From IMG/VR virus record IMGVR_UViG_3300037307_000289: a stretch of DNA of 64,000 bases, one strand, 5' to 3'. A program made the position numbers and the translations under genes. Shown here piece after piece: positions 5,577 to 32,743 of this stretch. Each line of letters begins with the position of its first letter. Positions within the stretch are counted from its first letter, which is position 1. The stretch is from a virus. The notes beneath the pieces were generated by a model, which saw only the letters and a program-made list of their open reading frames with translations, was not told the origin of the DNA and made no database searches.

Positions 5577-5773
5577 AATAAATTTTCTCTAACTCCTTTC
5601 TTTATTAGTTCATCATATTCTTCACAAGTATTTGTACATACCATCTTTAATAGACATATTTGACATGGGCATTCTTCTGCTTTAACTATACATAATATTT
5701 TGCATCCAACTTGATATTTAACTTCCTGTTCCCCATAGATAAAACACAGTTCACATTCTTTATTGTAATTCAT
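5573..5773 (-). CDS. CPC-CLVK family mini-protein (66 aa)
   Basis: CELCFIY; ECPCQICLLKMVCTNTC. Confidence 0.7.
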   Translation of the reverse strand: MNYNKECELCFIYGEQEVKYQVGCKILCIVKAEECPCQICLLKMVCTNTCEEYDELIKKGVRENLL

Positions 5774-8583: not shown

Positions 8584-8749
8584 TTATTTCCTTCAATGAG
8601 TAGTAGTATTTTTCACAATCTCTATCACATGTAACTTTGACTAGACATAATCTACAGACGCATACCTCAATACCTTCATTAAATACGTAGAACACTCTAC
8701 ATAGTTTTTTCTTTTTATTGTATTTTCTACACCCAAGACAGTCGTTCAT
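8552..8749 (-). CDS. CPC-CLVK family mini-protein (65 aa)
   Basis: CLGCRKY; CVCRLCLVKVTCDRDC. Confidence 0.65.
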   Translation of the reverse strand: MNDCLGCRKYNKKKKLCRVFYVFNEGIEVCVCRLCLVKVTCDRDCEKYYYSLKEINEVWKEKNKT

Positions 8750-9936
8750 TCTTTCATTGATATTACTGGTTTTATTCTGTCAATTATTTCTGCAGTTGGG
8801 TCTATTGCTGCTTCAATTACTTTAGGATCTTTATATGCACCCTTTAATTCATCAGTTGGTAACCTGGAAAAATAGATTCCTTTCTCTTTCATACGGTCGC
8901 TTGCTTCTTTATTAGATAGATTCTCATTAGCCCATTTTCTTGAACCTATACGGCCAGCGCCATGAGGGGCAGAATAGTTCCATTCTCGATTACTTTTACC
9001 TTTACATAGAAGTATTCCGTCCTCCATATTAAATGGAATAATAATTTCCTGATCTTTATATGCAGAGATTGCACCTTTTCTAATAATAAAATCTCTAAAA
9101 TCAACATAGTTATGAACTGAACTAACAATTCTATTTGATACTATACTTTTATTAAGTTCTTTCTTTAATACTTTCATAATTTCTTCCATCATGACTATTC
9201 TATTTACTAGTGCATATGTTTGAGCAATCAGAAGATCAACTAGATAATCAAACATATCTGCTCCCTCTAAATATGACAGAGGATGTTTTCCAGCTTTCTT
9301 CTGATGATAATTTGCACTTTTCAATCCATATTGTCTTGACCCTGAATGAATTGTAATCCAGGTATTCCCAGTAGTTTGTGATTCACCAACTTCAATAAAA
9401 TGATTTCCACCACCAAGAGTTCCTAATGATTTAACTACCCTGTCATAAGCTATACCAAACTTATCACATCTTTCTTTTATAGAATCAACACTTATAAATG
9501 GGGTTATATGTTTAGTTTGAAACTTACTATCATATTTTTCAGTGAATGTGACTAACTGAGGATTTACTAATGCTAAAAGTAATCCTATTCTATATTCAAT
9601 AAAATCCTTATTTACATCTGTACCAAACGGTATAACACTACGGATTAACCCGTCTATGCGCTCAGGAGAGAGATCTTTAAGTGTGCCTTGTCCTATATCA
9701 AATGATAACATTCCACATCCCTTATCGACTCCTATTACGTTTGGGATCACCTTGTTAGGCAACTCCATTGTAAATCCAATGACAGCTCCCTTTCCTGCAT
9801 GAGTATCAGGCATAATTGAAACTGGATTTGTAAATGCTTCATGACTAATAAACTCATATATTTGTTTCATTGTTTCTTCATCAATATTATCAATCAATAC
9901 TAAAGCAGTTGTGTATTTGCCTCTTACTTTAAACAT
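8746..9936 (-). CDS. rtcB: RtcB-family RNA 3'-phosphate/tRNA-splicing ligase (396 aa)
   Basis: Signature RtcB motifs are present: IMPDTHAGKG, GVDKGCGM, GGGNHFIEV and a C-terminal HNYV. Length is typical for the family. Confidence 0.9.
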   Translation of the reverse strand: MFKVRGKYTTALVLIDNIDEETMKQIYEFISHEAFTNPVSIMPDTHAGKGAVIGFTMELPNKVIPNVIGVDKGCGMLSFDIGQGTLKDLSPERIDGLIRSVIPFGTDVNKDFIEYRIGLLLALVNPQLVTFTEKYDSKFQTKHITPFISVDSIKERCDKFGIAYDRVVKSLGTLGGGNHFIEVGESQTTGNTWITIHSGSRQYGLKSANYHQKKAGKHPLSYLEGADMFDYLVDLLIAQTYALVNRIVMMEEIMKVLKKELNKSIVSNRIVSSVHNYVDFRDFIIRKGAISAYKDQEIIIPFNMEDGILLCKGKSNREWNYSAPHGAGRIGSRKWANENLSNKEASDRMKEKGIYFSRLPTDELKGAYKDPKVIEAAIDPTAEIIDRIKPVISMKE

Positions 9937-10196
9937 TACTTTCCTCTCTTTCTTCTTTTTATACTGATATAAGTAACATCGTTTAGAGTTAAATCTTTGT
10001 GCATCTTCCCCATTTTATCCTTTTCTTTACATCTATTCTTACACATTGGTTTGACCACACATGTTTTACATGGGCAATCTTTAAAATATTTCTTAATCAT
10101 CCAACATGCAACTAATAATTCTCCTATAGACCACAGATCTGGGATCTTACATCCTGAGCATTCTTTGTTTGGATTTATTTTTAAGTTCTGCCGCAT
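9936..10196 (-). CDS. CPC-CLVK family mini-protein (86 aa)
   Basis: CSGCKIP; DCPCKTCVVKPMCKNRC. Confidence 0.7.
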   Translation of the reverse strand: MRQNLKINPNKECSGCKIPDLWSIGELLVACWMIKKYFKDCPCKTCVVKPMCKNRCKEKDKMGKMHKDLTLNDVTYISIKRRKRGK

Positions 10197-10389
10197 ATCC
10201 TATTGGGTTACTCCTTAGAAATCTAAAGTCATCACACGAAACATCACACATAGTAATAATCAAACATTTTATACATGGGCATATAGGTCTATTTTCTTTT
10301 GATACCGGGCAAAGTTTGGTTCCATTAGTTTTTATTTGTTGAATATAAGCGGAACAACTTTTACACTCTTCCAGAAATGAACTTTCCAT
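10147..10389 (-). CDS. CPC-CLVK family mini-protein, divergent core (80 aa); first gene of the leftward array
   Basis: CKSCSAY; ICPCIKCLIITMCDVSC. Confidence 0.65.
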   Translation of the reverse strand: MESSFLEECKSCSAYIQQIKTNGTKLCPVSKENRPICPCIKCLIITMCDVSCDDFRFLRSNPIGYAAELKNKSKQRMLRM

Positions 10390-10416
10390 TTAATAACCTC
10401 ACACATGTATTTATAT

Positions 10417-10434
10417 GGGATCATTTATGATCCC
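10417..10434. promoter_or_regulatory. perfect 18-bp palindrome GGGATCATTTATGATCCC in the divergent intergenic region
   Basis: 8-bp arms with a 2-bp centre lie between the start of the minus-strand array (10389) and the plus-strand ORF. Candidate operator. Confidence 0.3.
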
Positions 10435-10511
10435 TTCGAGAAGTCTATTTGAACTATATATATTAATATTTGAAATCATTGAATTTAACTCTAACTTTAG
10501 GAGGGATAACT

Positions 10512-10841
10512 ATGTTTAAAGCTTTCGATTTGGGAAAACCGTCAGATATTTCTATCTGTGGAAAGTGTAGATTTATTAACAAAAATACCTGTATGAATCC
10601 ATTTTCGTTTTCCTTTCAGAGCAGGGTTCTCGACGGGTATATTTCCTGCACGAAGTTCAGCAGAAGACCTGAGGAAAAACAGGATTGCTCTAAGTGTCAT
10701 CTGGGGGGAGACTGTCCGATGACTCCAGATACCTGTCCCGGAGCAATCGACAAGAAACAGGTTGAGATGGTTATGCAGGACAGCTCTCCGATGGGGGAAA
10801 TACTCAGGTCTATCCTACTTGACTTGAAGCCGAATCGGTAG
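10512..10841 (+). CDS. Cys-rich hypothetical protein (about 109 aa from the internal Met), GC-richer than its surroundings
   Basis: A strong RBS AGGAGGG lies 6 nt before the internal ATG at 10512 (MFKAFDLGKPSD..). The track ORF starts at 10470 without an RBS. Multiple Cys (CGKC, CSKCHLGGDCP). Codon GC is visibly higher than in neighbouring genes. Confidence 0.4.
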   Translation: MFKAFDLGKPSDISICGKCRFINKNTCMNPFSFSFQSRVLDGYISCTKFSRRPEEKQDCSKCHLGGDCPMTPDTCPGAIDKKQVEMVMQDSSPMGEILRSILLDLKPNR

Positions 10842-10849
10842 GAAATCAG

Positions 10850-10876
10850 GGAGTAAGGACTAGAAATCCTTACTCC
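10850..10876. other. perfect 10-bp stem hairpin (ggagtaagga / tccttactcc, 7-nt loop) between convergent genes
   Basis: Read directly, immediately after the TAG stop at 10839-10841. No U-tract on either strand. Confidence 0.4.
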
Positions 10877-10886
10877 ATGACAAGTA

Positions 10887-11210
10887 TTAGTGAAATGATA
10901 AATAATCTCTTGGTGGGAATTCCCTTTCAATGAAAGGATTCTCTATTAATAAACAAATACCATCAGTATTTTTTCCTTGTTCTTTCAATCTTTTTATAAT
11001 TTCTTTTAGGGTTGGTTCATAGTTTGATCTAAAGTAAGAACAATCCCCAACAATTTTTTTTGCTATTGAATGATTATGATAAGAAGATTCCCCAGTCATT
11101 TTTTCTTGCTCATATCTAGCTCTACAACATGGAAAAGTTATACAACTTCTACATAAACAATCTGGATCTTTTCTAGCACCCAAGAAATACCTCGCAATAG
11201 TTTTTACCAA
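10887..11210 (-). CDS. hypothetical Cys-containing protein (107 aa)
   Basis: ORF only. CLCRSC..PCC motif. No family recognised. Confidence 0.4.
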   Translation of the reverse strand: MVKTIARYFLGARKDPDCLCRSCITFPCCRARYEQEKMTGESSYHNHSIAKKIVGDCSYFRSNYEPTLKEIIKRLKEQGKNTDGICLLIENPFIEREFPPRDYLSFH

Positions 11211-11521: not shown

Positions 11522-11785
11522 TCACGGATAGAAGTTTAGTTGCTTGTCTAATTCTGAGTTCACTTTGATTATTTCAAATAATGTTAGTGAATCTTTTTTT
11601 GTTACACCACAATAAGGACATTCAAAATCTGATTTTAAAGCAGTTAAACCTTTTTGAATAGCTAGCTCAAAAAATATTCCACAGTTTGGGCATCTCAATA
11701 CAATTTTATACTGATTAGGTCCAACCTCGACTGTTTTGAATAATCTATTCTTTGATGCTGCGGGAGGTCTTCCAGACGGGCTCAT
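11522..11785 (-). CDS. zinc-ribbon hypothetical protein (87 aa)
   Basis: CPNC..(x19)..CPYC pair. Confidence 0.45.
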   Translation of the reverse strand: MSPSGRPPAASKNRLFKTVEVGPNQYKIVLRCPNCGIFFELAIQKGLTALKSDFECPYCGVTKKDSLTLFEIIKVNSELDKQLNFYP

Positions 11786-11844
11786 CTTTCTCCTTTCGAT
11801 TTGAAAAAATAAGTTCTCTTCTTCAAATATTAATATATATAGTT

Positions 11845-12345
11845 CTATTCAACCAAACCATCATCAACTGCCATACTATAAGCTACTGATAATGGAGTCA
11901 TTGCACCGAGATGATATTCGTCTCTTGCAATATTTGATCCAACAAAACGACAATCCTTATCATGCCCATATCTCGCTATCAACAGTATATTATCAACTGG
12001 AGCGAGAGAACTTCTGTAATACATATCATAGACATCCGGGCCAACCTCTGTGGTGCCTAAGAAGTTCAGGGAAGGTTCTGGATTAAAATAACATTGTATT
12101 CCTGCTTCTATTAAGCTTTCATCTTCAAAGATTTTAAACTTACACTTTGGAAAATAAATATCAGGGAGTTCAGGAAATTCTATTTTTAATTCCTTTTTAA
12201 TAATTTCATTTGTTTCTCTTATAATAATGTATTTGCTTAAAGGATCCCAAATTTGAGTCATATATATTTCAACTTTTTCTTGAACGGATTCTAGTAAATA
12301 GTCTCTAGCTTTAATAAATAAACTAACAAGTTCTTCATCATCCAT
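11845..12345 (-). CDS. hypothetical acidic protein (166 aa)
   Basis: ORF with consistent AT-rich codon usage in the operon context. Confidence 0.45.
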   Translation of the reverse strand: MDDEELVSLFIKARDYLLESVQEKVEIYMTQIWDPLSKYIIIRETNEIIKKELKIEFPELPDIYFPKCKFKIFEDESLIEAGIQCYFNPEPSLNFLGTTEVGPDVYDMYYRSSLAPVDNILLIARYGHDKDCRFVGSNIARDEYHLGAMTPLSVAYSMAVDDGLVE

Positions 12346-12399
12346 TGCTATATCTCCGTCAATGGTAGGATTAGAGGGAGGGTTTCCCCTCCCTCATAA

Positions 12400-12879
12400 T
12401 TAGTTTTCTTTGATTAGGTCAGCTGCAATTAAAACTTCAACAACACTTGGTTCAATTGATTGTGGTAAATCTTCAAATGAAATTTTAAATGGATTTGATA
12501 GTGTAAATTCTTCATCAACAATCTTTTCAAATTCTTTAATCTGTGCTTCTCTTTGTTCAATAGCTGACTTAAACTTTTTCTTTAGTTTATTCATTTCTTT
12601 TTCAAATGCATCAGCCTTCGCTACAATAACAAATGAGTTATTTTGAATCATTGGTTTTCCAGCAGAATCTTTATCTGAATACTCTTGAGCTAGTTTGACT
12701 CTCTCAAGTTCAAAATCTAGAAAATCTTGATCTGGTTTTCTTGCCTCATCCAATGCGTCAACTTCCGACTTAATAGCAATTCTATTCTTAGCTAAAAAAT
12801 AACTAAACTTAACTCCATACTTCATGTCACCAAAACGATTAAACACCTCATTCAAACGCAATACATCTAATTTCTTCAT
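12400..12879 (-). CDS. hypothetical coiled-coil protein (159 aa)
   Basis: ORF with a Lys/Glu-rich helical region. Confidence 0.45.
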   Translation of the reverse strand: MKKLDVLRLNEVFNRFGDMKYGVKFSYFLAKNRIAIKSEVDALDEARKPDQDFLDFELERVKLAQEYSDKDSAGKPMIQNNSFVIVAKADAFEKEMNKLKKKFKSAIEQREAQIKEFEKIVDEEFTLSNPFKISFEDLPQSIEPSVVEVLIAADLIKEN

Positions 12880-12903
12880 TGTTTCCTGTTCCTTTCTTAT
12901 TAG

Positions 12904-13410
12904 TTAACAGCCACAACAACTGTTTTCATTATTTTGTTCTAAATCACAAGAACTTTTTCCCTCTGCTTCATCCAATAAAACATTTAAATATGGAATGCTT
13001 AAATCATAAGCTGGAGGCAGCCATCCTTTATAAGTATATAATTGTTCTAATGTTTTCTTCATAGCATCTGAAGATTTTGTGACTATAAATGACGAAGCTA
13101 TTAATACTTTTATACATTTGCAATATACAAAAATATCTTCATCTTGTTTTAAATTGTTATTCCAGTTGAAAATCAATTCACAAAAACCCTCTAAGAATTG
13201 ACCATACTTTCCACTGGTATTTTGATCAATACAAAATGTTACTAATTCCCTAGTAATCTTTTTACAAAAGTCAATATCAAATTCTTCAACTCTCTCATCT
13301 TTTTGGAGAGACGAAATATGTTGCATTATTAATAAGTAAAACTCCTTAAATTCTGGTGGGTATTCATCTATACTATTTTCTATAAACTGAATTGTTCTAT
13401 TAAAGTCCAC
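12904..13410 (-). CDS. hypothetical helical protein (168 aa) ending in CCGC, immediately downstream of radical SAM enzyme 1
   Basis: Stop/start coupled to 13412..14740. C-terminal ..NENSCCGC. Confidence 0.45.
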   Translation of the reverse strand: MDFNRTIQFIENSIDEYPPEFKEFYLLIMQHISSLQKDERVEEFDIDFCKKITRELVTFCIDQNTSGKYGQFLEGFCELIFNWNNNLKQDEDIFVYCKCIKVLIASSFIVTKSSDAMKKTLEQLYTYKGWLPPAYDLSIPYLNVLLDEAEGKSSCDLEQNNENSCCGC

Positions 13411-13411
13411 T

Positions 13412-14740
13412 TTAAAAACCCCCTTTATATTTTTCGTAATAAAGTTTTAAAGACTGTTTTTGTTCTTCACAAACGAAACTATAAATGTAAGGATGAAGTC
13501 CCAAGTCGTATATTTCATCTAACATAGCTTTAACTTTGGCATGTTCTAATAAACAAACAGTTGGGATAGGAGTGAATGTTGTTGAGTTAGTTTCATACAT
13601 TGATCCCCAACACTGTCCACAACATAAATGTTTTATAAGACAAGTTTGACAATATGGAAAATTATCTTCATCAACGCTGGTCCATGCAGTAAGTAAAGAT
13701 GCATTTAGAGCCTTTATTCCAGATATTTCATTATTTTCTATTTCAAATTTCCATAAGTTGTGAGGTTTATAAGATGCTCTATGACAAATAGAATGAGTTA
13801 AATCGCCTAATCTCAATTGAATTGTGTTTTGTACTGAGCATCCGCTGCCTCTTCCAACCCTTCCAAACATACTAAATAAATTACTAAGTCTACTATTTCT
13901 AAGATTAGTCATAAACTTATCTGGGTCATTCCCAACTTTAATATAGTAATAATTAACTAAAAATCTCATAAATTTATAGAAGTCATCTATTTGTTTTATT
14001 GTCCATTCTACATTTCTTACTTCTAAGAAATAAATTGAATCCCAAGACATTTTATGTTTTTCAAACATTTCTTGAAACCATAAATAATTTTGTTTCCACT
14101 TATGAATATTTTTACTATACATCATTGGATGAAATGCATAACTATACTTTGAACAAAACTTAAATAAGTCGTCATAGTATTTATCATCTCTAACTTTACC
14201 ACTTATAAATGGTCTATTTTCATCAACATATTTCCCATCAACTGATGCACTTAAATAAATATAGGTCCCATTATCGAATGCTTTATTAATTAGATATTCG
14301 ACTTTTTTAGTTTTTTCTTTACTAAAAATGAATGACATATTGGTTGGGATAACTACATAATGTGTTTGACATAAATCATTTCTAATATAGAAATCCAATA
14401 TTTTTTCAATTAAAACGAAACCAGCGTATTGAGCAAATACCTCTCCTGAGAATGGTTCTATAATAGGATAAAGCTCATTTTTTTCTAACCACTTAATAAG
14501 AATATCGAAATTATCTAATACTCTTTTTGGATTAGATATATCGTCTGGATATATTTGATCTTTATACTTTGCATAATAACAGTAAGTACATTCTAGATCA
14601 CACTTTGCATTTAACTGAACTTCTAACTTTGCAAAGTTGCCATATTTTTCTTTATCTGATAGATTTTCTCTTTTCCATGCGTTAAAAAAAGTTCTATCTA
14701 AAAAACTTTTTACTAATAGATCATCATGATTTAAAATCAT
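13412..14740 (-). CDS. radical SAM enzyme with C-terminal SPASM domain (peptide/protein-modifying type, 442 aa)
   Basis: CDLECTYCYY gives the CxxxCx(Y)C radical SAM cluster motif. The C-terminal CQTCLIKHLCCGQC gives the canonical SPASM Cx2Cx5Cx3C motif. Confidence 0.8.
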   Translation of the reverse strand: MILNHDDLLVKSFLDRTFFNAWKRENLSDKEKYGNFAKLEVQLNAKCDLECTYCYYAKYKDQIYPDDISNPKRVLDNFDILIKWLEKNELYPIIEPFSGEVFAQYAGFVLIEKILDFYIRNDLCQTHYVVIPTNMSFIFSKEKTKKVEYLINKAFDNGTYIYLSASVDGKYVDENRPFISGKVRDDKYYDDLFKFCSKYSYAFHPMMYSKNIHKWKQNYLWFQEMFEKHKMSWDSIYFLEVRNVEWTIKQIDDFYKFMRFLVNYYYIKVGNDPDKFMTNLRNSRLSNLFSMFGRVGRGSGCSVQNTIQLRLGDLTHSICHRASYKPHNLWKFEIENNEISGIKALNASLLTAWTSVDEDNFPYCQTCLIKHLCCGQCWGSMYETNSTTFTPIPTVCLLEHAKVKAMLDEIYDLGLHPYIYSFVCEEQKQSLKLYYEKYKGGF

Positions 14741-14756
14741 ATACTAAACCTTTCAT

Positions 14757-15209
14757 TTAAACTTTACTAGTTCTGTTGGTACCATAATATGTTGAATTGA
14801 CCGATACATAATTAGTATTATTAACAGATCCATTATAGGGGCTAGCTAAATATGATGCATTATATGAAGAACAATCTGAAGTATAATACCCGCCACAATA
14901 TCCTGGATAGTATCCACCATTATTACTACTATAATATGGTGAAGAATAATTAGGAGTAGTTAAATTAGAACCATCATTACTATTATAATGTGGAGTATTT
15001 CTAATAGCAACCAAGTATGATCCATCATTGGTAGTATAATGTGGTAAAGCTTGAACTGACGAATAGTGTGGTGTGCTTCTAACAGTTACGTTATATGCAA
15101 CATTTGCTCTATTATTATCCAAAAAGTCTGCATTGGTTCTTACTTCACTCAAATAACTGAATGAAACTTTTGATTGTCCTTGTGTAACTCCTGACCAAGT
15201 GAATGCCAT
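14757..15209 (-). CDS. Tyr/Ser/Asn/His-rich repeat protein (150 aa) with reiterated (T/S)P(H/N/Y)Y(S/T)(S/T) motifs; candidate modification substrate
   Basis: TPHYSS, LPHYTT, TPHYNS, TPNYSS and SPYYSS repeats. N-terminus MAFTWSGVT is shared with two other proteins in the cluster. Confidence 0.5.
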   Translation of the reverse strand: MAFTWSGVTQGQSKVSFSYLSEVRTNADFLDNNRANVAYNVTVRSTPHYSSVQALPHYTTNDGSYLVAIRNTPHYNSNDGSNLTTPNYSSPYYSSNNGGYYPGYCGGYYTSDCSSYNASYLASPYNGSVNNTNYVSVNSTYYGTNRTSKV

Positions 15210-15239
15210 TTTTAGATTCCTCTTTTAATAAATTAGTTA

Positions 15240-15785
15240 TTACGAATAAGATACATTGTGTGGTGTAGCTCTATAAGACCCCATATGAGATGATCTTTGA
15301 GTCGCCTGAACAGATGTATAATGCCCACTAAGTCTATGAGTATTATAGTGAATACTATAATGAGGGCCACTTCTATGAGAACCATGATATGTACCATAAA
15401 ACCCAGTATCTACATTATTATTATAACTACTATTGTGGGTTCCATGATGCCCTGTATCTACATTATTTTGATAACTTGAATAATGAGGTCCAGACCTATT
15501 TGTACTATTGTGTGTAGTAAAATGAGATGAACAAACATTGTTATCATGAACATAATCCAAGGCATTTCTTAGTTCGACAAAATCATCATATTCAATTTTT
15601 CCAGCAGTAGCAACTGGCAATTCACTCCATGAATAATTTGAAATGCCTAGATTTGCACATAAAGTATCGGTGTTTGTTTTTGCCTCATTAAAATGAGTTG
15701 GAATAATTTTTGTCCCTGCTGATACTGAAGTCCATGAGAAAGACATTTTAATTTTCCTCTTTAATAATATTGAAATAGTGTTCAC
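15240..15785 (-). CDS. His/Tyr/Ser/Asn-rich repeat protein (about 181 aa), paralogous to 14757..15209; start uncertain because it overlaps the upstream ORF by about 38 nt
   Basis: N-terminus ..MSFSWTSVSAG. Repeats GPHYSS, GPHYSI and SGHYTS. Confidence 0.5.
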   Translation of the reverse strand: MNTISILLKRKIKMSFSWTSVSAGTKIIPTHFNEAKTNTDTLCANLGISNYSWSELPVATAGKIEYDDFVELRNALDYVHDNNVCSSHFTTHNSTNRSGPHYSSYQNNVDTGHHGTHNSSYNNNVDTGFYGTYHGSHRSGPHYSIHYNTHRLSGHYTSVQATQRSSHMGSYRATPHNVSYS

Positions 15786-16224
15786 TAATTTTAAACCCTG
15801 GAACGTTTAAACAGTTAATCTCGTTTGTTAATCTAGAACAAGTTTCTTCTAAAAGTCTTATTTTTTCTAAAAGTGGTGATGAATCAGATGTTACCCTTCG
15901 CAAAAATGAAATTCTTTCTTGCAGATCTTCATTTCTATAAAAATCTTTACAGAAATTTTCAACTATAATAACAAAAGATAGTATGAAATCTTTTAACTCG
16001 GGTTCTAGAAACCTTGAGTACATAATGCCTAGTAAATGTTCTGTACACTTCATTAATAAATTTCCATCAATATTATCTGGAGTTTTTCCTTCTGCTTTTA
16101 ACTTAAATGATAGTTCCATCATTTCCAAAACAAAAAAATACTCAATACCAAGTTCTTTTGAGAAAACATAACATGATCTAGGAGATGATAGAAAAAATCT
16201 ACAAATTTCAAAAAGTTGTTCCAT
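15748..16224 (-). CDS. hypothetical helical protein (158 aa) immediately downstream of radical SAM enzyme 2
   Basis: ORF coupled to 16226..17584. Same positional relationship as 12904..13410 has to radical SAM enzyme 1. Confidence 0.45.
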   Translation of the reverse strand: MEQLFEICRFFLSSPRSCYVFSKELGIEYFFVLEMMELSFKLKAEGKTPDNIDGNLLMKCTEHLLGIMYSRFLEPELKDFILSFVIIVENFCKDFYRNEDLQERISFLRRVTSDSSPLLEKIRLLEETCSRLTNEINCLNVPGFKISEHYFNIIKEEN

Positions 16225-16225
16225 A

Positions 16226-17584
16226 TTATATCCTTCCTAAAATTTTCTTTACATAAAATTCAAACGCCCCATTTCCAAACATTCTAATAGTTGAAAGCAC
16301 CGAAGCTTCCATAGTACTCCCTTCATAAACATTATCTAATTGACAAGAGCATCCTTCTAAAAATGTTGAAAATAAATAACTAAACTTCTTATTTTTATAA
16401 ATAGGTGAAATTTGATTACAGCAAGCTAGTTCATGAATTGCAGCCATTCTTATGGTTGTTCTATGAATAATAAAATCTTGAAACCCTCTATTAACATACA
16501 ACATTTTTAGAAATTGCTTTTTATTATTAATATCTGCAATACCAGTCTTTACTATAATTTCATTTCTTCCAGCTTCTATATTATCTATTTCTTTTTTATT
16601 TTTGTTCCATTTTTTTACTTCATTTTCATATTCTGGATAATTTGTATAATAACTTCTGTGGCACCCATATAAAGTATTTGGCAAGTCTCCAAACCCAAAG
16701 CATGAATCACCAGATGAACAAGAAAACATTCTTGGTTTAGTAAAATATTCTTTATAATATGGAAGTTTGTCTACCCATCTATTAAAATAGAAACAAGAAG
16801 GATAAAAAATATGTTTATATCTTTCTTCATTACCTATTTCAAATTGTAGTTTAATCATTTTTAAAAACGAAATTCCATCATCTTGTGTATAGTTATCTGG
16901 CACTACAAGAGTTGGATTAACGAATTGTGATATTGTAATTTTTTTATTACCTATACTTTCAATCCATTTTTTTAAGCAGTCTTCAAAGAAATCATAATAA
17001 TTAACAAGAACTTCCTTATCACACATTTTTCTAACTATTTCTTTCGTTATTGTAGATTTAATTGTGAAACTTATATTATGAAAATCTTCGACATTTGAAA
17101 TTACTTCTTTAACATTATTTACTATAGTATTTGTTGAACCACCCAATCTGTTCTTATCAGTAATCCATTCTGGGCCATCTAATGATATTTGAAAAGATAC
17201 ATTAAGTTTTCTATTCTTAGGTAAAATTTCATTAACAAAATTTATTATATTCTTTGGTGGAGTCATAAAATTTGACGACATATGAATATTATTTAATTTT
17301 GGAAAAGAATCAACTGCTTCTTTATAAAAATCTTTAAATAAACTTAATGTTAATGTGGGTTCTGTTCCCCAATGTGAGAGACTATCTAAATCTTCACCCA
17401 TCATTTCTTTTAGCTCTTTTAAAAGATCCCCATTTTTAATTCTTTCTATAATTTTTGAGTGAACCTTTTTTAAGAAGTCTGTTTTTGGAATAAAACAATA
17501 TTTACAATTTAAATTACACCAACCAGATGAAAATAATTGAATAGCACTAGCCACATTTTCAGAAAAGTATTCGTTCAATTTCAT
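16226..17584 (-). CDS. radical SAM enzyme with C-terminal auxiliary Cys clusters (SPASM/twitch-like, 452 aa)
   Basis: GWCNLNCKYC gives the CxxxCxYC motif. C-terminal Cys groups CSSGDSC..GC and ACCN..GCSC. Confidence 0.75.
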   Translation of the reverse strand: MKLNEYFSENVASAIQLFSSGWCNLNCKYCFIPKTDFLKKVHSKIIERIKNGDLLKELKEMMGEDLDSLSHWGTEPTLTLSLFKDFYKEAVDSFPKLNNIHMSSNFMTPPKNIINFVNEILPKNRKLNVSFQISLDGPEWITDKNRLGGSTNTIVNNVKEVISNVEDFHNISFTIKSTITKEIVRKMCDKEVLVNYYDFFEDCLKKWIESIGNKKITISQFVNPTLVVPDNYTQDDGISFLKMIKLQFEIGNEERYKHIFYPSCFYFNRWVDKLPYYKEYFTKPRMFSCSSGDSCFGFGDLPNTLYGCHRSYYTNYPEYENEVKKWNKNKKEIDNIEAGRNEIIVKTGIADINNKKQFLKMLYVNRGFQDFIIHRTTIRMAAIHELACCNQISPIYKNKKFSYLFSTFLEGCSCQLDNVYEGSTMEASVLSTIRMFGNGAFEFYVKKILGRI

Positions 17585-18453
17585 TAGTATTTTTCCACCA
17601 TCGAAAAAGATTTGTTAGAAGTTGTATCTAATATATTACATTCACATAACTTATTAAAACCAAACATGTTTTCATAATAGTAAGGAACTCTAACTTGAAA
17701 TATAGTTCCTTCCTCTAAGTCTAAACATGCTTGATCTAAAGCTGTTTTATCAATTTGATTACTGCCCCATTGATCTAGTAATGCTTTAACACTAATATAG
17801 AAATTTATAGTAGATTCTGGTTTAGAAAGAAGAGAACTAGAATAGTGCAATCCATCAGGTCTTCTGTTAGGGTCTACTATATTATAGAGACCACTTTGAT
17901 TATATTTATCAACATGATATTTTTGAAGATATGCACAAATTCCATCTTTCCAAGTTAAAAACTTTCTATGTGTATTATTGATATTTGGATTAATCTGGTT
18001 TTTAACTAAATGAAAAAATAAAAATGACTTTAAATCATTTATTTTTAATGGATCATTAACTTCTGGAAATGTAAAATAAGTATTATAAGACTCATCTTGA
18101 ATATATGTTTCAACTTGTTCAAGAATTGCTGTTGTATCAAAATTTTGATTTATTAGATCCACTAAATTTAGTTCTGAAAAAACTACATAATCAATATTAA
18201 GATTTTGACACCAGGTTTCACAATACGATTGGTCAAAGGAATATGTACTTTCCGTTCCACCAAACAAAGAGGTATAATTTTTATTATGATATGAAAAGCA
18301 TACCACTGAAGTAGTAGAGTTATTTTTCAAGATAGTTAATAAATCTTCATGGCCAGTATGAAGTTCTCCGTTCCCCTTTACATTGAAGGTCGAAACACCA
18401 ATATTACTCCCTACTATATTTTCTAAATCGAACCAGCTAGTTAAAACTTGCAT
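17584..18453 (-). CDS. HxGH-motif nucleotidyltransferase-fold protein (289 aa)
   Basis: GNGELHTGHEDLL resembles the (T/H)xGH signature of cytidylyl/adenylyltransferase-type Rossmann enzymes. No further assignment. Confidence 0.4.
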   Translation of the reverse strand: MQVLTSWFDLENIVGSNIGVSTFNVKGNGELHTGHEDLLTILKNNSTTSVVCFSYHNKNYTSLFGGTESTYSFDQSYCETWCQNLNIDYVVFSELNLVDLINQNFDTTAILEQVETYIQDESYNTYFTFPEVNDPLKINDLKSFLFFHLVKNQINPNINNTHRKFLTWKDGICAYLQKYHVDKYNQSGLYNIVDPNRRPDGLHYSSSLLSKPESTINFYISVKALLDQWGSNQIDKTALDQACLDLEEGTIFQVRVPYYYENMFGFNKLCECNILDTTSNKSFSMVEKY

Positions 18454-18465
18454 TTTTAGTTCCTC

Positions 18466-19500
18466 TTATAAATATGTTTTAATCAAGTTTTGAAAATCTG
18501 TTTTATTTTTTTCATAAGCAAATTTTTCTCTTGCTCTTTCAACTATGTCAAAAGAAACTTCACTTAAGTCAGGATTATCATTTTTTAGTTTAACTAGATT
18601 GCTTAATAGTTCGTCTTCTTTATTACAACCAAAATATAAACCTTTTGCCCAATCAATCCACCTGTAATCAAATGATCTATCTGTTCTATCATTACATACT
18701 AATGGGATTGTTCCACATAAAATGCTTTGTAATAAAGTAACATTAAATATTTCAGAAAATCGCCCATGTGGCAAAACAAAATATTTATACTGATTTAAAA
18801 TTTCAGATACAGAGTTTTGTGGAACCATTGGTAAAATATTTATTCCACTTTCTAATACTTTTCTTTTATAGTCATCATCTAAATAACTAGATATTTCAGA
18901 ATAAAAATCTATTTCTATACCATTGTAATTTTTATATTTATCAAGAAATTCAGTAGAAACTTTTATTGGCATAATATAACCCATGTAACAAAATAGCTTT
19001 TTTCTTTCATTCCATGGAATTATTGGTTTATATACTTTTGGATTTACCGGAAACCAACTCTTTATTATTTTATCTTTTACCCATAAAGGAAATTCAACAT
19101 CTCTAACTGGGCCATTTAATGTTATAGCATGATCCATTGATTCATTATAAAATTTTACTGTAAACCAAACCTTAGCACTATCTTCAGTATTGTTTTCTCC
19201 TTGGTCTTCAAACTTTATCATTAGCCCATCATAAGAATGAACTATACATATAACTTTTGTGTCTGGAAAAAACTTTTTATAATAATAAGTGGTATCTGTA
19301 CTCTTGTGATATATCTCATTCAAAACAACAACATCAGGTTTTTCTCTTATCATTTCAGTTATTAAATGTGGCGACTGATCCTGATGTTTTTGTTCGTATA
19401 TTTCAATATTTTCAATTTCTTTTAACCACTCTAATATCACATTACCGGTGTACTCTATTCCAGAACCAACATTGAAATTGTAATAGAACAGTTTTTTCAT
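18466..19500 (-). CDS. putative GT-B fold glycosyltransferase (344 aa)
   Basis: The C-terminal region RFSEIFNVTLLQSILCGTIPLVCNDR resembles the GT4-type E..F..llEAm..G.P.I donor-binding motif. Confidence 0.45.
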   Translation of the reverse strand: MKKLFYYNFNVGSGIEYTGNVILEWLKEIENIEIYEQKHQDQSPHLITEMIREKPDVVVLNEIYHKSTDTTYYYKKFFPDTKVICIVHSYDGLMIKFEDQGENNTEDSAKVWFTVKFYNESMDHAITLNGPVRDVEFPLWVKDKIIKSWFPVNPKVYKPIIPWNERKKLFCYMGYIMPIKVSTEFLDKYKNYNGIEIDFYSEISSYLDDDYKRKVLESGINILPMVPQNSVSEILNQYKYFVLPHGRFSEIFNVTLLQSILCGTIPLVCNDRTDRSFDYRWIDWAKGLYFGCNKEDELLSNLVKLKNDNPDLSEVSFDIVERAREKFAYEKNKTDFQNLIKTYL

Positions 19501-19838
19501 CTATTCTCCTTTTGAAAACATTCATAACATTTAAATATTTGTTCTAAATTTTCCTCTTTGCCTTCCAATTTTTTTTCAATATAATAATCTTCGCATGAGC
19601 TACAAACCAATAGAATATAACTTTCTCCATCAATCATAAATCTTCCGTTAGAATATTTTAAGTTTTGTATTGTATCCCAACATAGTCTTACTTCTTTTCT
19701 ATACTTTCCTCTGTTAGTACATGTTGGAGAAAAAGCAGAATTATATGAAGTACAACTATTCTGTTTTAATTTTGGAGTACTATAAAATTTATCAACTTTG
19801 TAATTATTTTCTAAATTCTTATTCCAGTTAAATGCCAT
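19497..19838 (-). CDS. zinc-ribbon protein (113 aa) with MAFNW N-terminus
   Basis: CSSC...CYEC pairs. The N-terminus MAFNW resembles MAFTW/MSFSW of the repeat proteins. Confidence 0.45.
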   Translation of the reverse strand: MAFNWNKNLENNYKVDKFYSTPKLKQNSCTSYNSAFSPTCTNRGKYRKEVRLCWDTIQNLKYSNGRFMIDGESYILLVCSSCEDYYIEKKLEGKEENLEQIFKCYECFQKENR

Positions 19839-20724
19839 TTCCGTAATCCCAAACTCTGTAAAGTTGTTTTGTTTTTCTATCTCTTATTATTATTGAAATT
19901 ATTGATTTATTCATAGTTATTTCATTATTAACATGAGTGAATGAATCTAATTTATATTTAATGGATCTTAAAACTAAATCATCTATATTTTTAGATAAAT
20001 TATCAATATCATTATCATTCCTAAACTTGTTAAAAAAAGGGACCATTTTACTAAAAACTTCTACAACTTCAGGAGGATAAGTTTTAAATGAAACATCATA
20101 TGCTAAACCATTTTTATTTCTCAGTATAGGAACCATTTTATAAGTACCACTACAATACTTTTCCCAGAAATGTTTATATAAAAATCCCCAAGTTCCTTCT
20201 GGAGAAACAGCTTGAAAACATCTATTTATAAATTTACTTCCTGATCTATCTGTATATAAAAAATAATGTCTACTAAGAACTAATTTGACCCATGCAGTAT
20301 TTCCCTCAATAGACCAATTGCATAAATAAGGTTCGTATCCTTCTTTTATCCAGATTTCATCTATTTCTTTTCTGACTTGTTTAAAGATTTCATCTTCAAA
20401 TAGTTCATATATAAACTCTTTGTCTGGAAGAAATAAATAATCAAATTTCTTTTCACTCAACCATTTTATTGCATTTTCTTCATCATATTCAGATATCTTA
20501 GTTGGGATTCCTCTAAATACATTTATATCATGATAATTATCCCAAATAACACAAAGAAGTTTTTGCCCCATACCAACTGAGTACTTATACAAATGTTCGT
20601 GAGTAAAATCAAATAAATGTAATCCTCTAGAATATCCAACACAACTATATGTATAATTGGGGTCAACTAATTGTTTCAGCTTTTTCCAATCTCTTATTAC
20701 TTCCATCTTACTCCTTCTGTCCAT
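19828..20724 (-). CDS. hypothetical protein (298 aa)
   Basis: ORF in operon context. Trp/Tyr-rich. No family recognised. Confidence 0.45.
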   Translation of the reverse strand: MDRRSKMEVIRDWKKLKQLVDPNYTYSCVGYSRGLHLFDFTHEHLYKYSVGMGQKLLCVIWDNYHDINVFRGIPTKISEYDEENAIKWLSEKKFDYLFLPDKEFIYELFEDEIFKQVRKEIDEIWIKEGYEPYLCNWSIEGNTAWVKLVLSRHYFLYTDRSGSKFINRCFQAVSPEGTWGFLYKHFWEKYCSGTYKMVPILRNKNGLAYDVSFKTYPPEVVEVFSKMVPFFNKFRNDNDIDNLSKNIDDLVLRSIKYKLDSFTHVNNEITMNKSIISIIIRDRKTKQLYRVWDYGNGI

Positions 20725-21500
20725 GCTTTATAATCATCAAATGAAAATGTTGCATGGACCCACCCATTCATTTTATAGAAGTTAATAACTTTCAAGCCTT
20801 CAATTTCTTTTATATGTTCTCTAACGTGTTCTATATTTTCAAAATCAGGTAATAAAAGTTTTTTATTTATTCTATCTTTTAAATGTTTTGGTAACCCGCT
20901 AATTGTTCTTGAAATTGAATTACCATAAGAATCAGTTTGTGAGTCCAATAAGTCCAGTTTTAATCCCCACCTGTCGTAGACATAATCAGTATATCCTACT
21001 GATCTAAATCTATCTTTTCCTCCTTGCCCTTGATACTCAAACTGTAGATTATAAACTCCATGAATAATATATCTAGTTGCAACTGCTTCAAATAATGAGT
21101 TATAAGTATCCTTATCATCTAGAACACCTTTTTCTTTTAAACATTCAATAGGAAACTGTTCAGAAAACTCATTATCAATTTCTTTTAAATAATCTTGGTA
21201 AGGAAAATAATTTCCTGTTAATATTAAACCAACATCAGAATATTTTTTTAAATATTCAATATCTGATTCATATACAGGGAATGTTTCTATATTATTTTTC
21301 CCCAAAAGCTTTTCAAATACTTTTGCTCTGTTGTTGAATAGTATTCCAACTACCCAGTCACACTTCTGAGCAGACTCTGCACATTTTTGATGCCCAGAAT
21401 GAAATTTTCCTTGAAAAATCCATAGTCCTCTAGTTCCGTTTTCGGGGTGCAACCTTTTTAAATCATCATATGAATAAACTATTATTCCTTTTCTAGACAT
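20697..21500 (-). CDS. HxGH-motif nucleotidyltransferase-fold protein (267 aa)
   Basis: WIFQGKFHSGHQK fits the G-x-F-x(3)-H-x-G-H cytidylyltransferase-like signature. Confidence 0.45.
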   Translation of the reverse strand: MSRKGIIVYSYDDLKRLHPENGTRGLWIFQGKFHSGHQKCAESAQKCDWVVGILFNNRAKVFEKLLGKNNIETFPVYESDIEYLKKYSDVGLILTGNYFPYQDYLKEIDNEFSEQFPIECLKEKGVLDDKDTYNSLFEAVATRYIIHGVYNLQFEYQGQGGKDRFRSVGYTDYVYDRWGLKLDLLDSQTDSYGNSISRTISGLPKHLKDRINKKLLLPDFENIEHVREHIKEIEGLKVINFYKMNGWVHATFSFDDYKAWTEGVRWK

Positions 21501-22665
21501 TACAAATCCCCTTTTCTAAAAACTTATCATAATTATTTTCATAGAAAAACTCTTCAAATATTCCACAGTTATAATATAGTTTAAAAAATGACTTATACAT
21601 TTTCAATACTTCATCATTCAACTGCCTTTGTTTATCACTCAATCTATAAATATAATATGTTTTTCCATATTTGCTAGTATGCGGAATAGTTTCATCTTCT
21701 TTACTATGTGCAAATAACCAATGATTCAAACATGAAATTTTATCTTTATACTTTTCTAACTTTGAAAGAAAATATTCTATTGACTTAACATCATCTTTTA
21801 TTAAATTATTCCATCCATGTATTACTGTAATCTTAACGTGACATTTTCTTTCTATAAAATATTTCATAACTTCTATAGCTGAATCTACATCTATTCCTTT
21901 ATTCATTATATCATACATTCTGTTAGATGGGAATTCTATTCCTATAATTGGTCTAAATCTATCATGTGGAATTCCTTTTTCATTTAATGCTTTTAGGATC
22001 TCCCTATCTCCTCGTATAAAAAAAGTATAGTAAGATTCTTTCTTTAAATTCTGAAATAGTGTTAAAATATCTCTTGGTGTTACAGAAAGTTTGTTTAACC
22101 AAATAGTATTTCTGTTTGGTTTTATTATTGGTATTTGATCTGCATCCACATCTGCATCAATACCATAATCCCTATTGCAAAATTTACACTTTCCCCAGTA
22201 ACATTTATTTCCATATGATAGAGAATAGTTGTAATATATCTCTAACTTATCAATATCTCTTAAATTTGGCAAAACTAAATTCCATGTTTTTTCGCTAGGT
22301 TTTATTCCTAATATTTCAAACATATTTCTTTTATCTGAAGTAAAGTTTTCAGAATCAACATGGAAATCTAAATAGTTAACAGCTGGGCCTCCAACTATAA
22401 ATTTAACATTTTTATTTTCTTTTATTAATGTTTCTACATACTTAAACTCTGTATCAAAACCACAAGAAATATATACAGTTCCTTCAACACTAGGATAAAA
22501 TTTATTAGTTGGGTCAATCCAAAGCATTTTTCCTTTATTTTTAATTACATTCCAAACAGATGAAAACCCATTTTTTAGAAATAAGACTCCATCTTCTATT
22601 TTGTAAAATTGAATATAAGTTTCCATTATTTCTTCTCTGATTCGCCTAGATGATTTTTTCTCCAC
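21493..22665 (-). CDS. Cys-cluster enzyme with a Cx4Cx2C motif, possibly a radical SAM variant (390 aa)
   Basis: GNKCYWGKCKFCN with an aromatic before the last Cys, as in radical SAM loops. Paralog of the next gene, sharing the E(F/Y)PS(N/D)(R/K)M(Y/L)..MNKG block. Confidence 0.45.
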   Translation of the reverse strand: MEKKSSRRIREEIMETYIQFYKIEDGVLFLKNGFSSVWNVIKNKGKMLWIDPTNKFYPSVEGTVYISCGFDTEFKYVETLIKENKNVKFIVGGPAVNYLDFHVDSENFTSDKRNMFEILGIKPSEKTWNLVLPNLRDIDKLEIYYNYSLSYGNKCYWGKCKFCNRDYGIDADVDADQIPIIKPNRNTIWLNKLSVTPRDILTLFQNLKKESYYTFFIRGDREILKALNEKGIPHDRFRPIIGIEFPSNRMYDIMNKGIDVDSAIEVMKYFIERKCHVKITVIHGWNNLIKDDVKSIEYFLSKLEKYKDKISCLNHWLFAHSKEDETIPHTSKYGKTYYIYRLSDKQRQLNDEVLKMYKSFFKLYYNCGIFEEFFYENNYDKFLEKGICNV

Positions 22666-23807
22666 TTATCATCTTTTTCTGAAACATCATAAACTTTTAA
22701 AAATGGATATGAATTAATTAGTTTTCTAATTTCACTATTTATAATTTTTTGTTTTTCAGTTTGTTTGGATAAACCAACATAAACATCATAATCTGTCTCA
22801 CATATATCCATATCTTCTAATGTATATTCCTCAGACATTTTTCTATCTGGCATAATAGTAAGAGGATAAACATTAGCAGTAATTGTATTTGGTTTAGAAA
22901 TAAGTGAAATTTTATCTAGAAAATATTTCATGCTATCTAAATCATCATAATCAGTTGGTTTCCACCCTAAGATAAAATTGAAATGTAATCTAATATCGTT
23001 CTGACTACATACTTCAATAAAATTTAAGTAGTCTTTTACAGTTGCCCCTTTATTCATATACTTTAACATTTTATCTGATGGGTATTCTATTCCTAAATTA
23101 AAAGCTAGATACTTAGGATCGACTTTCAATAATGGTAATATTTCTTTTAATGCTTTAGTAGAATAATTATCTCCTCTTATATATGTTGCATAAACAACAT
23201 CATCTCTTTTTTCAAATTGAGGATATAATTTTTTCATAAAAAATGGAGGCATTGAATAAACATGCAACCAAATAAACTTTTTATGTGGACTGTCGATAAC
23301 TGGAACTGTATAAGTTTCTCTATACTTTAATTTTCCAGTTATTTTACAGTATCTACATTTTCCCCAATAACATCCATATCCATCTACTAATGCAACACTA
23401 TACCCAATTGGCTTTTCAGTTTCAACTACTTCTAGATTCCATTCTGATATTTGCCCATTACATAAAAGATCTTCAGCGTTTAAATTGCTAATATGAAAGT
23501 TTGGTAATTCTTTTCCTAGTTTAATTCCATAATGTAAAACAAGTGGGCCACAAACGTATACTTCAAGATTTGAATATGTTTGTGCCCACTTGTATAATAA
23601 TCTTAAACTCTTAGAATACCAAACTGATGCATAAATAATTCCTTCTGTTGCAACTATAGTTTCTTCTTCAACATTTCTCCAAACCATCTCTCCTTGTTCT
23701 TTTAGTTGGTTCCATACTAACGACAAACCATTATTAAAGTTTACAATTCGATCAGGGCCATAGAGAAAATCTTCTTCTCTATAAAATTGAAGAAAATACT
23801 TTTTCAT
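22626..23807 (-). CDS. paralogous Cx4Cx2C Cys-cluster enzyme (393 aa)
   Basis: GYGCYWGKCRYCK. Shares motif blocks with 21493..22665. Confidence 0.45.
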   Translation of the reverse strand: MKKYFLQFYREEDFLYGPDRIVNFNNGLSLVWNQLKEQGEMVWRNVEEETIVATEGIIYASVWYSKSLRLLYKWAQTYSNLEVYVCGPLVLHYGIKLGKELPNFHISNLNAEDLLCNGQISEWNLEVVETEKPIGYSVALVDGYGCYWGKCRYCKITGKLKYRETYTVPVIDSPHKKFIWLHVYSMPPFFMKKLYPQFEKRDDVVYATYIRGDNYSTKALKEILPLLKVDPKYLAFNLGIEYPSDKMLKYMNKGATVKDYLNFIEVCSQNDIRLHFNFILGWKPTDYDDLDSMKYFLDKISLISKPNTITANVYPLTIMPDRKMSEEYTLEDMDICETDYDVYVGLSKQTEKQKIINSEIRKLINSYPFLKVYDVSEKDDKWRKNHLGESEKK

Positions 23808-27918: not shown

Positions 27919-27920
27919 AT

Positions 27921-30088: not shown

Positions 30089-30090
30089 TT

Positions 30091-31647: not shown

Positions 31648-31696
31648 TAAATCAGTCCTCCTTTATAGTTCTGCACTAAATAAAACATAACCACCA

Positions 31697-32728: not shown

Positions 32729-32743
32729 ACTTTTATCTCCAAA

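Follow-up and report, generated by a model that had tools for sequence, protein, structure and literature searches.

A conserved radical SAM cassette of uncultured phages resembles Hxs-type repeat-protein maturation in its architecture but has different enzymes

Analysis of the viral DNA stretch IMGVR_UViG_3300037307_000289 from IMG/VR (64,000 nucleotides, hereafter the window) identified six genes at positions 12904–17584, all on the minus strand, that form a conserved unit. They encode two radical S-adenosylmethionine (SAM) enzymes, rSAM1 and rSAM2, two repeat-rich proteins, A and B, and two small helper proteins (Table 1). Judged from sequence, the unit is most likely an undescribed system for the chemical modification of repeat proteins that, by analogy, resembles the known radical SAM-matured Hxs-type repeat proteins but employs different enzymes. 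The reading favoured here, which we regard as probable though well short of certain, is that of a conserved protein-maturation cassette of phages and of bacteria of the candidate phyla radiation (CPR), in which the two radical SAM enzymes act together on A and B as their putative substrates. No description of the cassette was found in the literature.

A preliminary description of the locus had two radical SAM genes bracketing two paralogous repeat proteins, and the open reading frames (ORFs) were found as described, with A and B paralogous by BLASTP (E = 1e-7). The six genes are tightly packed, their stops and starts overlapping or almost touching, and are transcribed in the order rSAM2, helper 2, repeat protein B, repeat protein A, rSAM1, helper 1. 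Promoter and terminator counts across 11.5–26.5 kb equalled those of shuffled sequence and operon boundaries can therefore not be claimed. The window is a low-GC phage sequence (approximately 30% GC). No DNA similarity to annotated phages was detected in a megablast search of positions 12000–18500. Genes for tRNA or tmRNA were absent from positions 1–64000, as were Rfam families at the gathering threshold.

Both enzymes carry a CxxxCxxC motif, CDLECTYC at residues 47–54 of rSAM1 (C47/C51/C54) and CNLNCKYC at residues 23–30 of rSAM2 (C23/C27/C30), that was invariant in 27-sequence alignments. The SPASM segment CX2CX5CX3C proposed for rSAM1 was confirmed as C364-x2-C367-x5-C373-x3-C377, and residues C301, C319, C364, C367, C373, C377 and C396 were invariant among 27 homologs of 39–74% identity (alignment A3), which amounts to a full seven-cysteine SPASM signature. 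For rSAM2 a CxxxCxYC motif and C-terminal cysteine clusters had been described. The motif held, but only three downstream cysteines, C289, C308 and C414, were invariant in alignment A4 (27 sequences). The rSAM2 C-terminus is therefore Twitch-like, or a partial rather than a full SPASM domain, and probably binds one auxiliary cluster and not two. No close paralogy was observed between the two enzymes.

Profile and fold comparisons place both proteins in the peptide- and protein-modifying class of radical SAM enzymes, yet outside every characterised family. rSAM2 matched Pfam Radical_SAM (2.5e-6) and its top NCBIfam match was PapB (8.5e-14, below cut-off), and rSAM1 gave weak NCBIfam matches to QhpD (3e-7), PapB (3e-5) and the SPASM domain (0.011). 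Weak matches to peptide and protein maturase models were common to both enzymes (PapB, QhpD, anSME, GrrM, YhhB, DynA, AmcB, HxsB, CbpB and SCIFF), with scores 5- to 30-fold under the curated cut-offs, every one of which was failed. In profile searches of the PDB, CteB, TigE and ChlB were the nearest structures, and the best rSAM1 match, CteB (5wgg, 8.5e-10), included an aligned SPASM segment. The AlphaFold2 (AF2) model of rSAM2 (pLDDT 90.7) had anSME (4k36, 3.5e-8) as its best Foldseek match, followed by ChlB, SkfB, SuiB and TigE, with TM-scores of approximately 0.5. A classification with cofactor or rRNA-methylation enzymes was looked for by hidden Markov model (HMM), PDB profile and fold and did not emerge. 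In PADLOC, which was run on rSAM2 and seven other proteins, only rSAM2 gave matches, namely weak ones to viperin models.

The likeness to maturases of ribosomally made, post-translationally modified peptides (RiPPs), such as CteB/SCIFF, PapB, QhpD, ChlB, SuiB and SkfB, thus lies in these nearest matches, in the CxxxCxxC motif and seven-cysteine SPASM signature of rSAM1 and in adjoining genes that encode a conserved domain joined to a variable, putatively modified region. The differences are scores far under the cut-offs, the lack of a fused RiPP recognition element (RRE), a separate helper that is all-alpha and not PqqD-like, and candidate substrates of 100–390 aa that have dozens of repeats and few cysteines and are sometimes located C-terminally on large proteins. 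No fused RRE was found in either enzyme, the CxxxCxxC motif beginning at residue 47 in rSAM1 and at residue 23 in rSAM2.

Repeat proteins A and B have in common a motif of approximately 33 residues, [FY]xW[ST]...G..I.....E.[RK].N.D, termed the W-motif, that is found once in A-type proteins and twice in B-type proteins, where the second copy is followed by an invariant cysteine (DNNxC). The 181-aa ORF listed for B begins at GTG. The true start is almost certainly the ATG at 15746, because it is preceded by the Shine-Dalgarno sequence AAGAGGAAA and because roughly 150 homologs begin exactly at MSFSW. Protein B of the window consists of two W-motif copies (HMM matches at residues 14–46 and 50–83 of the long ORF), the junction cysteine (DNNVC) and a 97-aa period-4 tail rich in H, Y, S, T, N and G; residues W5, W40, D64 and C72 are invariant in B-type proteins. 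Protein A has a single W-motif (HMM 1.2e-13); its tail of 117 aa contains five P[HNY]Y[STN][ST] units and finishes in a stretch rich in Y, S and N. When 1.84 billion representatives were searched exhaustively by phmmer with the B domain (75 residues), 153 B-type representatives were recovered, nearly all of 83–340 aa with the domain at residues 1–75, a family size that agrees with the 149 and 164 homologous protein clusters obtained for rSAM2 and rSAM1, respectively. In the loci examined the B-type partner was always accompanied by an A-type protein. No hydrophobic segment of a signal peptide was seen by inspection in A (MAFTWSG) or B (MSFSWTS) of the window, and neither matched a peptidoglycan-binding domain in Pfam.

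The reiterated (T/S/G)P(H/N/Y)Y(S/T)(S/T) units reported for the tails are real, the count of P[HNY]Y[STN][ST] in A being 5 against 0.0 expected, with five or more in 0 of 5000 shuffles. H-x-[ST] triplets numbered 9 in B against 4.1 expected (a count reached in 19 of 5000 shuffles) and [HYFW]-x-[ST] triplets 12 and 14 in the two window tails against 5.8 and 7.7. [ST]-x-[ST] was depleted, 0–1 being observed against roughly 8 expected, a count as low in 0 of 5000 shuffles. Over 77 tails of the family, Ser/Thr pairs occurred at 0.10–0.11 at lags of 4, 8 and 12 residues as opposed to 0.003–0.007 at lags of 2, 6 and 10. Aromatic residues, if present, were two positions out of phase with Ser/Thr (pooled, +/-2). 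The predominant tail residues were S, T, N, D, Y, G, H and V, and 16 of the 77 tails were less than 10% aromatic. In locus L001 (L001–L093 label loci of homologous cassettes, and P numbers individual proteins of the family) the tails of 318 and 335 aa are (DDTTVDSGDDVTVNAD)n-type Asp/Thr/Val repeats (D/T/V/N/A) with 10 and 8 aromatic residues. The feature conserved in the family is the period-4 Ser/Thr and not the aromatic residues.

The tails are hypervariable and of low complexity, Ser/Thr taking a set place in each four-residue period and His, Tyr, Asp or Asn standing two residues from it. Close relatives differ by gain and loss of repeat units, and at larger distances the tails diverge faster than the W-motif domain (31–39% against 56% identity in L093). 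In some members the motif and tail are found at the C-terminus of proteins of 250–960 aa, such as P0317 (960 aa), where they follow four galactose-binding-like repeats, and P0385, where they follow a LamG-like segment, both by inspection. These C-terminal fusions to large proteins favour a protein product over an excised peptide. The median tail has approximately 2 cysteines to dozens of repeats, and A and B as substrates of thioether chemistry of the PapB or QhpD type were ruled out on that account. Two further observations concern the C-termini. An A-type protein of 278 aa (L011, 1103–1939) has an insertion after the tail that starts CFPAGIKILLANKRW...DIRPGDEVMS and looks to be of Hint/intein type. 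The B-type proteins P0251, P0264, P0277 and P0288 end with SD[IKR]RLK..I[VI]Y[LI] and stop about 12 residues later, a motif that we take to resemble the cleavage site of the intramolecular chaperone (peptidase S74) domains of tail fibres.

The helical protein of about 160 aa that had been described after each enzyme was confirmed with AF2, and the two helpers proved to be homologous to each other. Profiles of the two families (ten and five orthologs) aligned with an hhalign probability of 99.3% (E = 1e-20) and have the motifs NWN and W.PP.F.LS..Y..L in common, a relation that was not detected by BLASTP of helper 1 against helper 2. No match to helper 2 was found in Pfam, NCBIfam, PHROG or PADLOC. 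The suggestion of a recognition partner did not hold in its classical form, as the helper is not PqqD-like and no PqqD-like winged-helix RRE, fused or as a partner protein, was found. In all loci where a helper was detected (39 of 39) it was located directly after rSAM1, and it probably partners rSAM1.

Conservation of the cassette was evaluated by single-protein scans of IMG/VR followed by a profile scan. The former returned two loci, L001 and L002, with the identical six genes in the same order. Contigs with divergent homologs (L004, L006, L008 and L010–L013) had the same components in shuffled order and sometimes one helper. The profile scan returned 54 viral loci from IMG/VR and 24 loci from GTDB representative genomes. 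Of the non-redundant, HMM-annotated loci, 75 have a full rSAM1-like gene, and in 62 of these it is paired with an rSAM2-like gene that lies no more than 6 kb away on that strand. Two W-motif proteins were present in 28 of the 39 helper-bearing loci, the others including six truncated contigs and three loci with His-Xaa-Ser (HxS) repeat proteins. A precursor-plus-maturase set had been considered unusual in a virus; with 54 viral loci and roughly 150 protein clusters the cassette is instead common in uncultured phages. The precursor-plus-maturase reading as such gained support from the conserved linkage and from the peptide- and protein-modifying relatives of the enzymes.

In a distant viral clade, in which rSAM1 is 28–32% identical, the enzyme pair is located beside other short-period Ser-rich repeat proteins, with repeats such as SNGTR/SYGKD or YDGSYNGTYRASNNA, and the motif domain and junction cysteine were found in 4 of 5 examples. 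Across divergent phage and CPR loci the cassette is linked to a putative ribosomal substrate with a conserved and a variable region, and a Ser-containing short-period repeat is the common denominator of all clades. Among annotated phages, tblastn found no match to rSAM2 and only distant radical SAM genes of Campylobacter phages for rSAM1. These sole annotated phage relatives (CP220 and CP21, phrog_1802; approximately 25% identity) probably belong to a different system. In Campylobacter phages CP220 and CPt10 (L003 and L053) the gene is found among genes for a QueE-like radical SAM protein, UDP-glucose dehydrogenase and a nucleotidyltransferase, and no rSAM2, helper or W-motif protein was detected in these neighbourhoods.

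Not all matches in cellular bins are cellular, some being phage contigs that were placed in CPR or DPANN metagenome-assembled genomes. L071, binned as Woesearchaeota, is the phage contig L004, which carries fibre genes. Pure mis-binning was rejected as an account of the cellular matches, however, and some loci are truly cellular because their flanking genes are: the flanks of L069, on a Parcubacteria contig of 238 kb, encode TatC, pyruvate:ferredoxin oxidoreductase subunits and RecG, and those of L010 encode RNase Y, a two-component system and a type II secretion system ATPase. The gene directly upstream of the cassette is that of TatC in cellular loci L008 (3101–4336), L010 (1614–2883) and L069 (3212–3994), with TatA present as well in L008 and L010. 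L008 has in addition a gene for a protein of 76 aa whose N-terminus (MKIERRNFLKF) is twin-arginine-like.

Three CPR loci (L079, L087 and L091) connect the cassette to the HXS (His-Xaa-Ser) system. In these, rSAM2, rSAM1 and the helper are present, W-motif proteins are absent, and a signal- or membrane-anchored HxS-repeat protein is encoded directly upstream of rSAM2. The repeat protein of L087 contains approximately 200 residues of HGS/HSS/HAS and passes the NCBIfam model HxsA4 (cut-off 55) at 101.4 bits, and that of L079 nearly passes HxsA3 and HxsA4 over its full length. The L087 locus, from a Colwellbacteria metagenome-assembled genome, also appears as a radical SAM-rich island beside its (HxS)n protein, with at least 4 more radical SAM genes flanking the cassette (4164–5654, 9870–10790, 11748–12689 and 14666–15880).

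The HXS system is a Proteobacterial antiphage system composed of the radical SAM enzymes HxsB and HxsC, the effector HxsA and the small HxsD, a binding partner of HxsC; HxsA, with its five HxS repeats, is processed, gains 8 Da on SHRSS and is exported (Nat Commun 2026, PMC13128918). Both systems have two different, adjacent radical SAM enzymes and a small partner tied to one of them, HxsD to HxsC there and the helper, always after rSAM1, here. Both are likewise built around a ribosomal short Ser-repeat substrate that remains, here by prediction, a protein after maturation, and the CPR relatives of the cassette have literal (His-Xaa-Ser)n proteins as candidate substrates.

The differences were evaluated with the NCBIfam Hxs models (TIGR03978 and related), on which this comparison rests. 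HxsB scored 30.9 bits with rSAM2, gave no match to rSAM1 of the window and scored 20.7–31.7 bits with the enzymes of the CPR loci, against a cut-off of 370. No match to HxsC was obtained at E <= 0.1, the helper matched no HxsD HMM, and A and B matched no HxsA model even though B has its 9 H-x-[ST] triplets. The putative substrates of the window have a W-motif domain instead of a signal peptide and peptidoglycan-binding domain, and their repeats have a period of four, vary between H, Y, D and N and number tens as opposed to five. The cassette is furthermore carried by phages, next to tail-fibre genes, and HXS by contrast by Proteobacteria, as a defence against phages. Judged by architecture the cassette would be a distant, non-orthologous analogue of HXS, and a closer analogue of it than of triceptide systems.

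In the mechanism proposed for the maturation cassette, each enzyme would cleave SAM reductively and take a hydrogen atom out of the tail, the likeliest site being the periodic Ser/Thr or the residue beside it, and thereby install repeated modifications, for example crosslinks to a residue two positions off, or oxidation. Both enzymes would work on each substrate, as loci with a single substrate keep both. The product would remain a protein of approximately 100–300 aa and not be trimmed to a small peptide, and the clade-specific enzymes encoded upstream (glycosyltransferase, PanC-like ligases, B12-type radical SAM proteins and a major facilitator superfamily (MFS) transporter) would probably add decorations. 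The mature proteins would probably function outside the cytoplasm, in a virion fibre or at the cell surface, because in phages the module comes after a particular tail-fibre gene and in CPR bacteria it adjoins TatC.

Several points weigh against this proposal. The enzyme–substrate relation is drawn from conserved linkage, and the enzymes fail every curated cut-off, that of HxsB included, while the HxsC, HxsD and HxsA models miss the window proteins. As A and B have no visible signal peptide or peptidoglycan-binding match, the HXS localisation model is not transferable. The same enzymes are found in CPR bacteria with HxS substrates that have no W-motif, and this motif may therefore not be the recognition element. 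Confidence in the helper model is medium (pLDDT 68), the model being built on an alignment of 4 sequences since a word-indexed homolog search with helper 1 gave 3 matches. The linkage to tail fibres could reflect the position of the module and not its function, and sites of glycosylation, or a repeat of structural nature, would explain the period-4 Ser/Thr just as well.

Three other explanations were weighed. The preliminary description had proposed triceptide-type cyclophane synthases (three-residue cyclophane-forming enzymes, 3-CyFE) that would join a His or Tyr ring to the beta-carbon two residues on with a loss of 2 Da per repeat, rSAM1 acting on A and rSAM2 on B. The repeat substrates, the aromatic-x-[S/T]-like spacing of many tails, the enrichment of [HYFW]-x-[ST] in those of the window and the pooled enrichment at +/-2 are all of the expected kind; GrrM/OscB, YhhB, AmcB, XyeB and FxsB are among the weak HMM matches, and ChlB, solved with a precursor leader region, is among the nearest structures. 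The scores, however, were 36 bits for GrrM (cut-off 310), 17.5 for XyeB (450), 13.3 for FxsB (370), 34.6 for YhhB (445) and 32.5 for AmcB (425), no better than those of thioether, sulfatase or QhpD-type models. The enrichment of aromatics about Ser/Thr is symmetric (+2 and -2), which is expected from plain period 4, and the position-1 aromatic of triceptide substrates, although present in the tails of the window, is not conserved in the cassette family, in which aromatics are dispensable (8–10 per tail in L001, under 10% in 16 of 77 tails). The pairing of A with rSAM1 and B with rSAM2 gained no support either, as CPR loci with a single substrate gene retain the enzyme pair and a lone helper accompanies two substrates in many loci. 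Triceptide chemistry accordingly appears to suit the tails of the window but not the family, and is considered unlikely.

A rather slim chance is given to anSME-like chemistry, in which one enzyme or both would oxidise the periodic Ser/Thr to formylglycine or a ketone, the tail carbonyls being used in crosslinking or adhesion. It would act on the sole near-universal feature of the tails, and anSME, which acts on Ser or Cys of proteins without an RRE, matches rSAM2 best in structure (4k36), has an HMM match at 3.8e-10 and is echoed in the 'AslB' label that the JGI auto-annotation gives to many family members. This HMM match nonetheless amounts to 39.4 bits against a cut-off of 349, the fold match to a TM-score of about 0.5 at 15% identity, and rSAM2 has only 3 conserved auxiliary cysteines. 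The sulfatase target motif is C/S-x-P-x-R, and it was not seen in the tails by inspection. The published HXS modification is moreover a gain of 8 Da and not an oxidation. It is more improbable again that the repeat proteins are unmodified structural or fibre-associated proteins, the radical SAM enzymes acting together with the PanC-like, MFS and glycosyltransferase proteins on a small molecule, a glycan or some other target. The genes upstream are indeed of a small-molecule type (three PanC-like proteins, an MFS transporter, a glycosyltransferase and two B12-type radical SAM proteins), the tails resemble low-complexity fibre sequence, and in phages the module accompanies a tail-fibre gene. These accessory genes are however missing from most loci, in contrast to the two enzymes, the helper and the repeat proteins, which are retained; the repeat genes lie between or beside the enzymes in viral and cellular loci alike, including CPR loci without fibres, and the nearest relatives of the enzymes all act on peptides or proteins.

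A bolder proposal, which we put forward with considerable doubt, extends the maturation cassette to hypervariable repeat proteins of a new class, crosslinked or decorated by radical chemistry, at the infection interface of phages and CPR episymbionts. They would be made by an undescribed radical SAM reaction on a scaffold of period-4 Ser/Thr in which His, Tyr, Asp or Asn are tolerated. In one version the matured protein would be a fibre or adhesin appendage on the upstream tail-fibre protein, with turnover of repeats driving change of host range. In the other it would be a phage counterpart of the HXS barrier, serving superinfection exclusion or countering HXS-like defences. Radical SAM maturation of whole short-repeat proteins has only recently been tied to a role, that of the HXS antiphage barrier in 2026. 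The cassette would add a second, non-orthologous enzyme set of HXS-like logic, widespread in uncultured phages and CPR bacteria, with substrates that here are hypervariable and near tail-fibre genes. If the proposed maturation is correct, this would be one of a very small number of cases in which an enzyme installs a radical modification on a protein encoded by a phage. The cassette would then offer an experimental handle on new chemistry, through dozens of natural substrate variants with matched enzymes, and a functional clue to a conserved gene set of CPR bacteria, whose genomes are mostly without annotation.

Table 1. Genes of the cassette and of the region upstream of it in the window
Feature	Position	Strand	Remarks
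Helper 1	12904–13410	-	168 aa, all-alpha, directly after rSAM1
rSAM1	13412–14740	-	442 aa, core component
Repeat protein A	14757–15209	-	150 aa, putative substrate
Repeat protein B	15240–15746	-	168 aa, putative substrate
Helper 2	15748–16224	-	158 aa, all-alpha, paralog of helper 1
rSAM2	16226–17584	-	452 aa, core component
PanC-like (HxGH) ATP-dependent ligase, type b	17584–18453	-	stop overlaps rSAM2 start
GT1-like glycosyltransferase	18466–19500	-	Pfam Glycos_transf_1 weak, 0.052
Small Cys-rich protein	19497–19838	-	113 aa, upstream of rSAM2, conserved in L004 and L012
PanC-like paralog, degenerate HxGH motif	19828–20724	-	alignments A5/A6
PanC-like paralog, type a	20697–21500	-	alignments A5/A6; own profile reaches PanC only at E = 0.28
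rSAM4, B12-type radical-SAM-like	21493–22665	-	CYWGKCxxC
rSAM3, B12-type radical-SAM-like	22626–23807	-	CYWGKCxxC, rSAM4 paralog
MFS transporter	23808–24812	-	Pfam MFS_1 3.3e-10, above cut-off
Tail-fibre protein	24858–26144	-	PHROG tail fibre matches; directly upstream of module

The structural-gene neighbourhood that had been described around the cassette is real, tail-fibre PHROG matches extending as a block from 24858 to approximately 48472. A fibre gene lies directly upstream of the module in 7 of the first 7 viral loci and upstream of it in some 25 of all loci, and this arrangement is usual in phages. The middle part of the fibre protein at 24858–26144 is approximately 35% identical to cyanophage tail fibres. 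Its C-terminal 180 aa (24858–25400) are strongly conserved, with invariant ADF, CQ, SDT.G, GWVLAY and GRHW.KV (alignment A9), and gave no match in Pfam, the PDB or annotated phages.

The accessory genes between the fibre gene and the cassette are present in subsets of loci only. A profile of the type-b PanC-like family (A7) retrieved pantothenate synthetases, 3mxt at 7.2e-9 as well as roughly 10 others, with the DGL..SS segment covered by the match, and homologs are found beside the cassette in L001, L002 and L006. Homologs of the other two PanC-like paralogs were observed in L001, L006 and L013. Three paralogous PanC-like (pantoate-beta-alanine ligase) proteins are encoded beside a phage cassette of the proposed protein-maturation type. 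The glycosyltransferase is 33% identical to the glycosyltransferase half of an 830-aa rSAM2-GT1 fusion protein encoded at 4488–6980 of L010, on a cellular (CPR-like) contig of 291 kb, and this fusion ties glycosylation to the pathway. Apart from the window, 11 of the sampled loci had glycosyltransferase matches adjacent to the cassette. The small Cys-rich protein is 27–35% identical (BLASTP) to proteins encoded in L004 (6601–6975) and L012 (6630–6998).

rSAM4 and rSAM3 matched Pfam Radical_SAM at 2.8e-4 and 1.1e-5, respectively. Weak NCBIfam matches of rSAM3 were to the methyl-coenzyme M reductase Gln C-methyltransferase (1.9e-8) and to a RiPP C-methyltransferase; rSAM4 gave none. Their motif and homologs were found in L011 and L013, and homologs of the MFS transporter occupy the corresponding place in L001, L006 and L013. 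Homologs of this B12-type pair and the transporter, located between fibre gene and cassette, hold their position across L001, L006, L011 and L013.

Other features of the window were noted at greater distance from the cassette. An RtcB protein is encoded at 8746–9936, and just downstream of it, at 9936–11210, small Cys-rich ORFs of 80–123 aa with CPC/CxxC-type motifs are found on both strands. On the divergently transcribed arm, a protein with an SPFH/Band-7 domain and one with a partial Ser/Thr protein-kinase domain are encoded at 52952–54778 and 60413–62089 (plus strand). Within the fibre block, positions 26851–34999 hold seven tandem paralogous tail-fibre genes of 343–518 aa, all phrog_4492, and these are followed by proteins of 1415 aa (a collagen-like fibre) and 2337 aa, which makes for an unusually large fibre repertoire.

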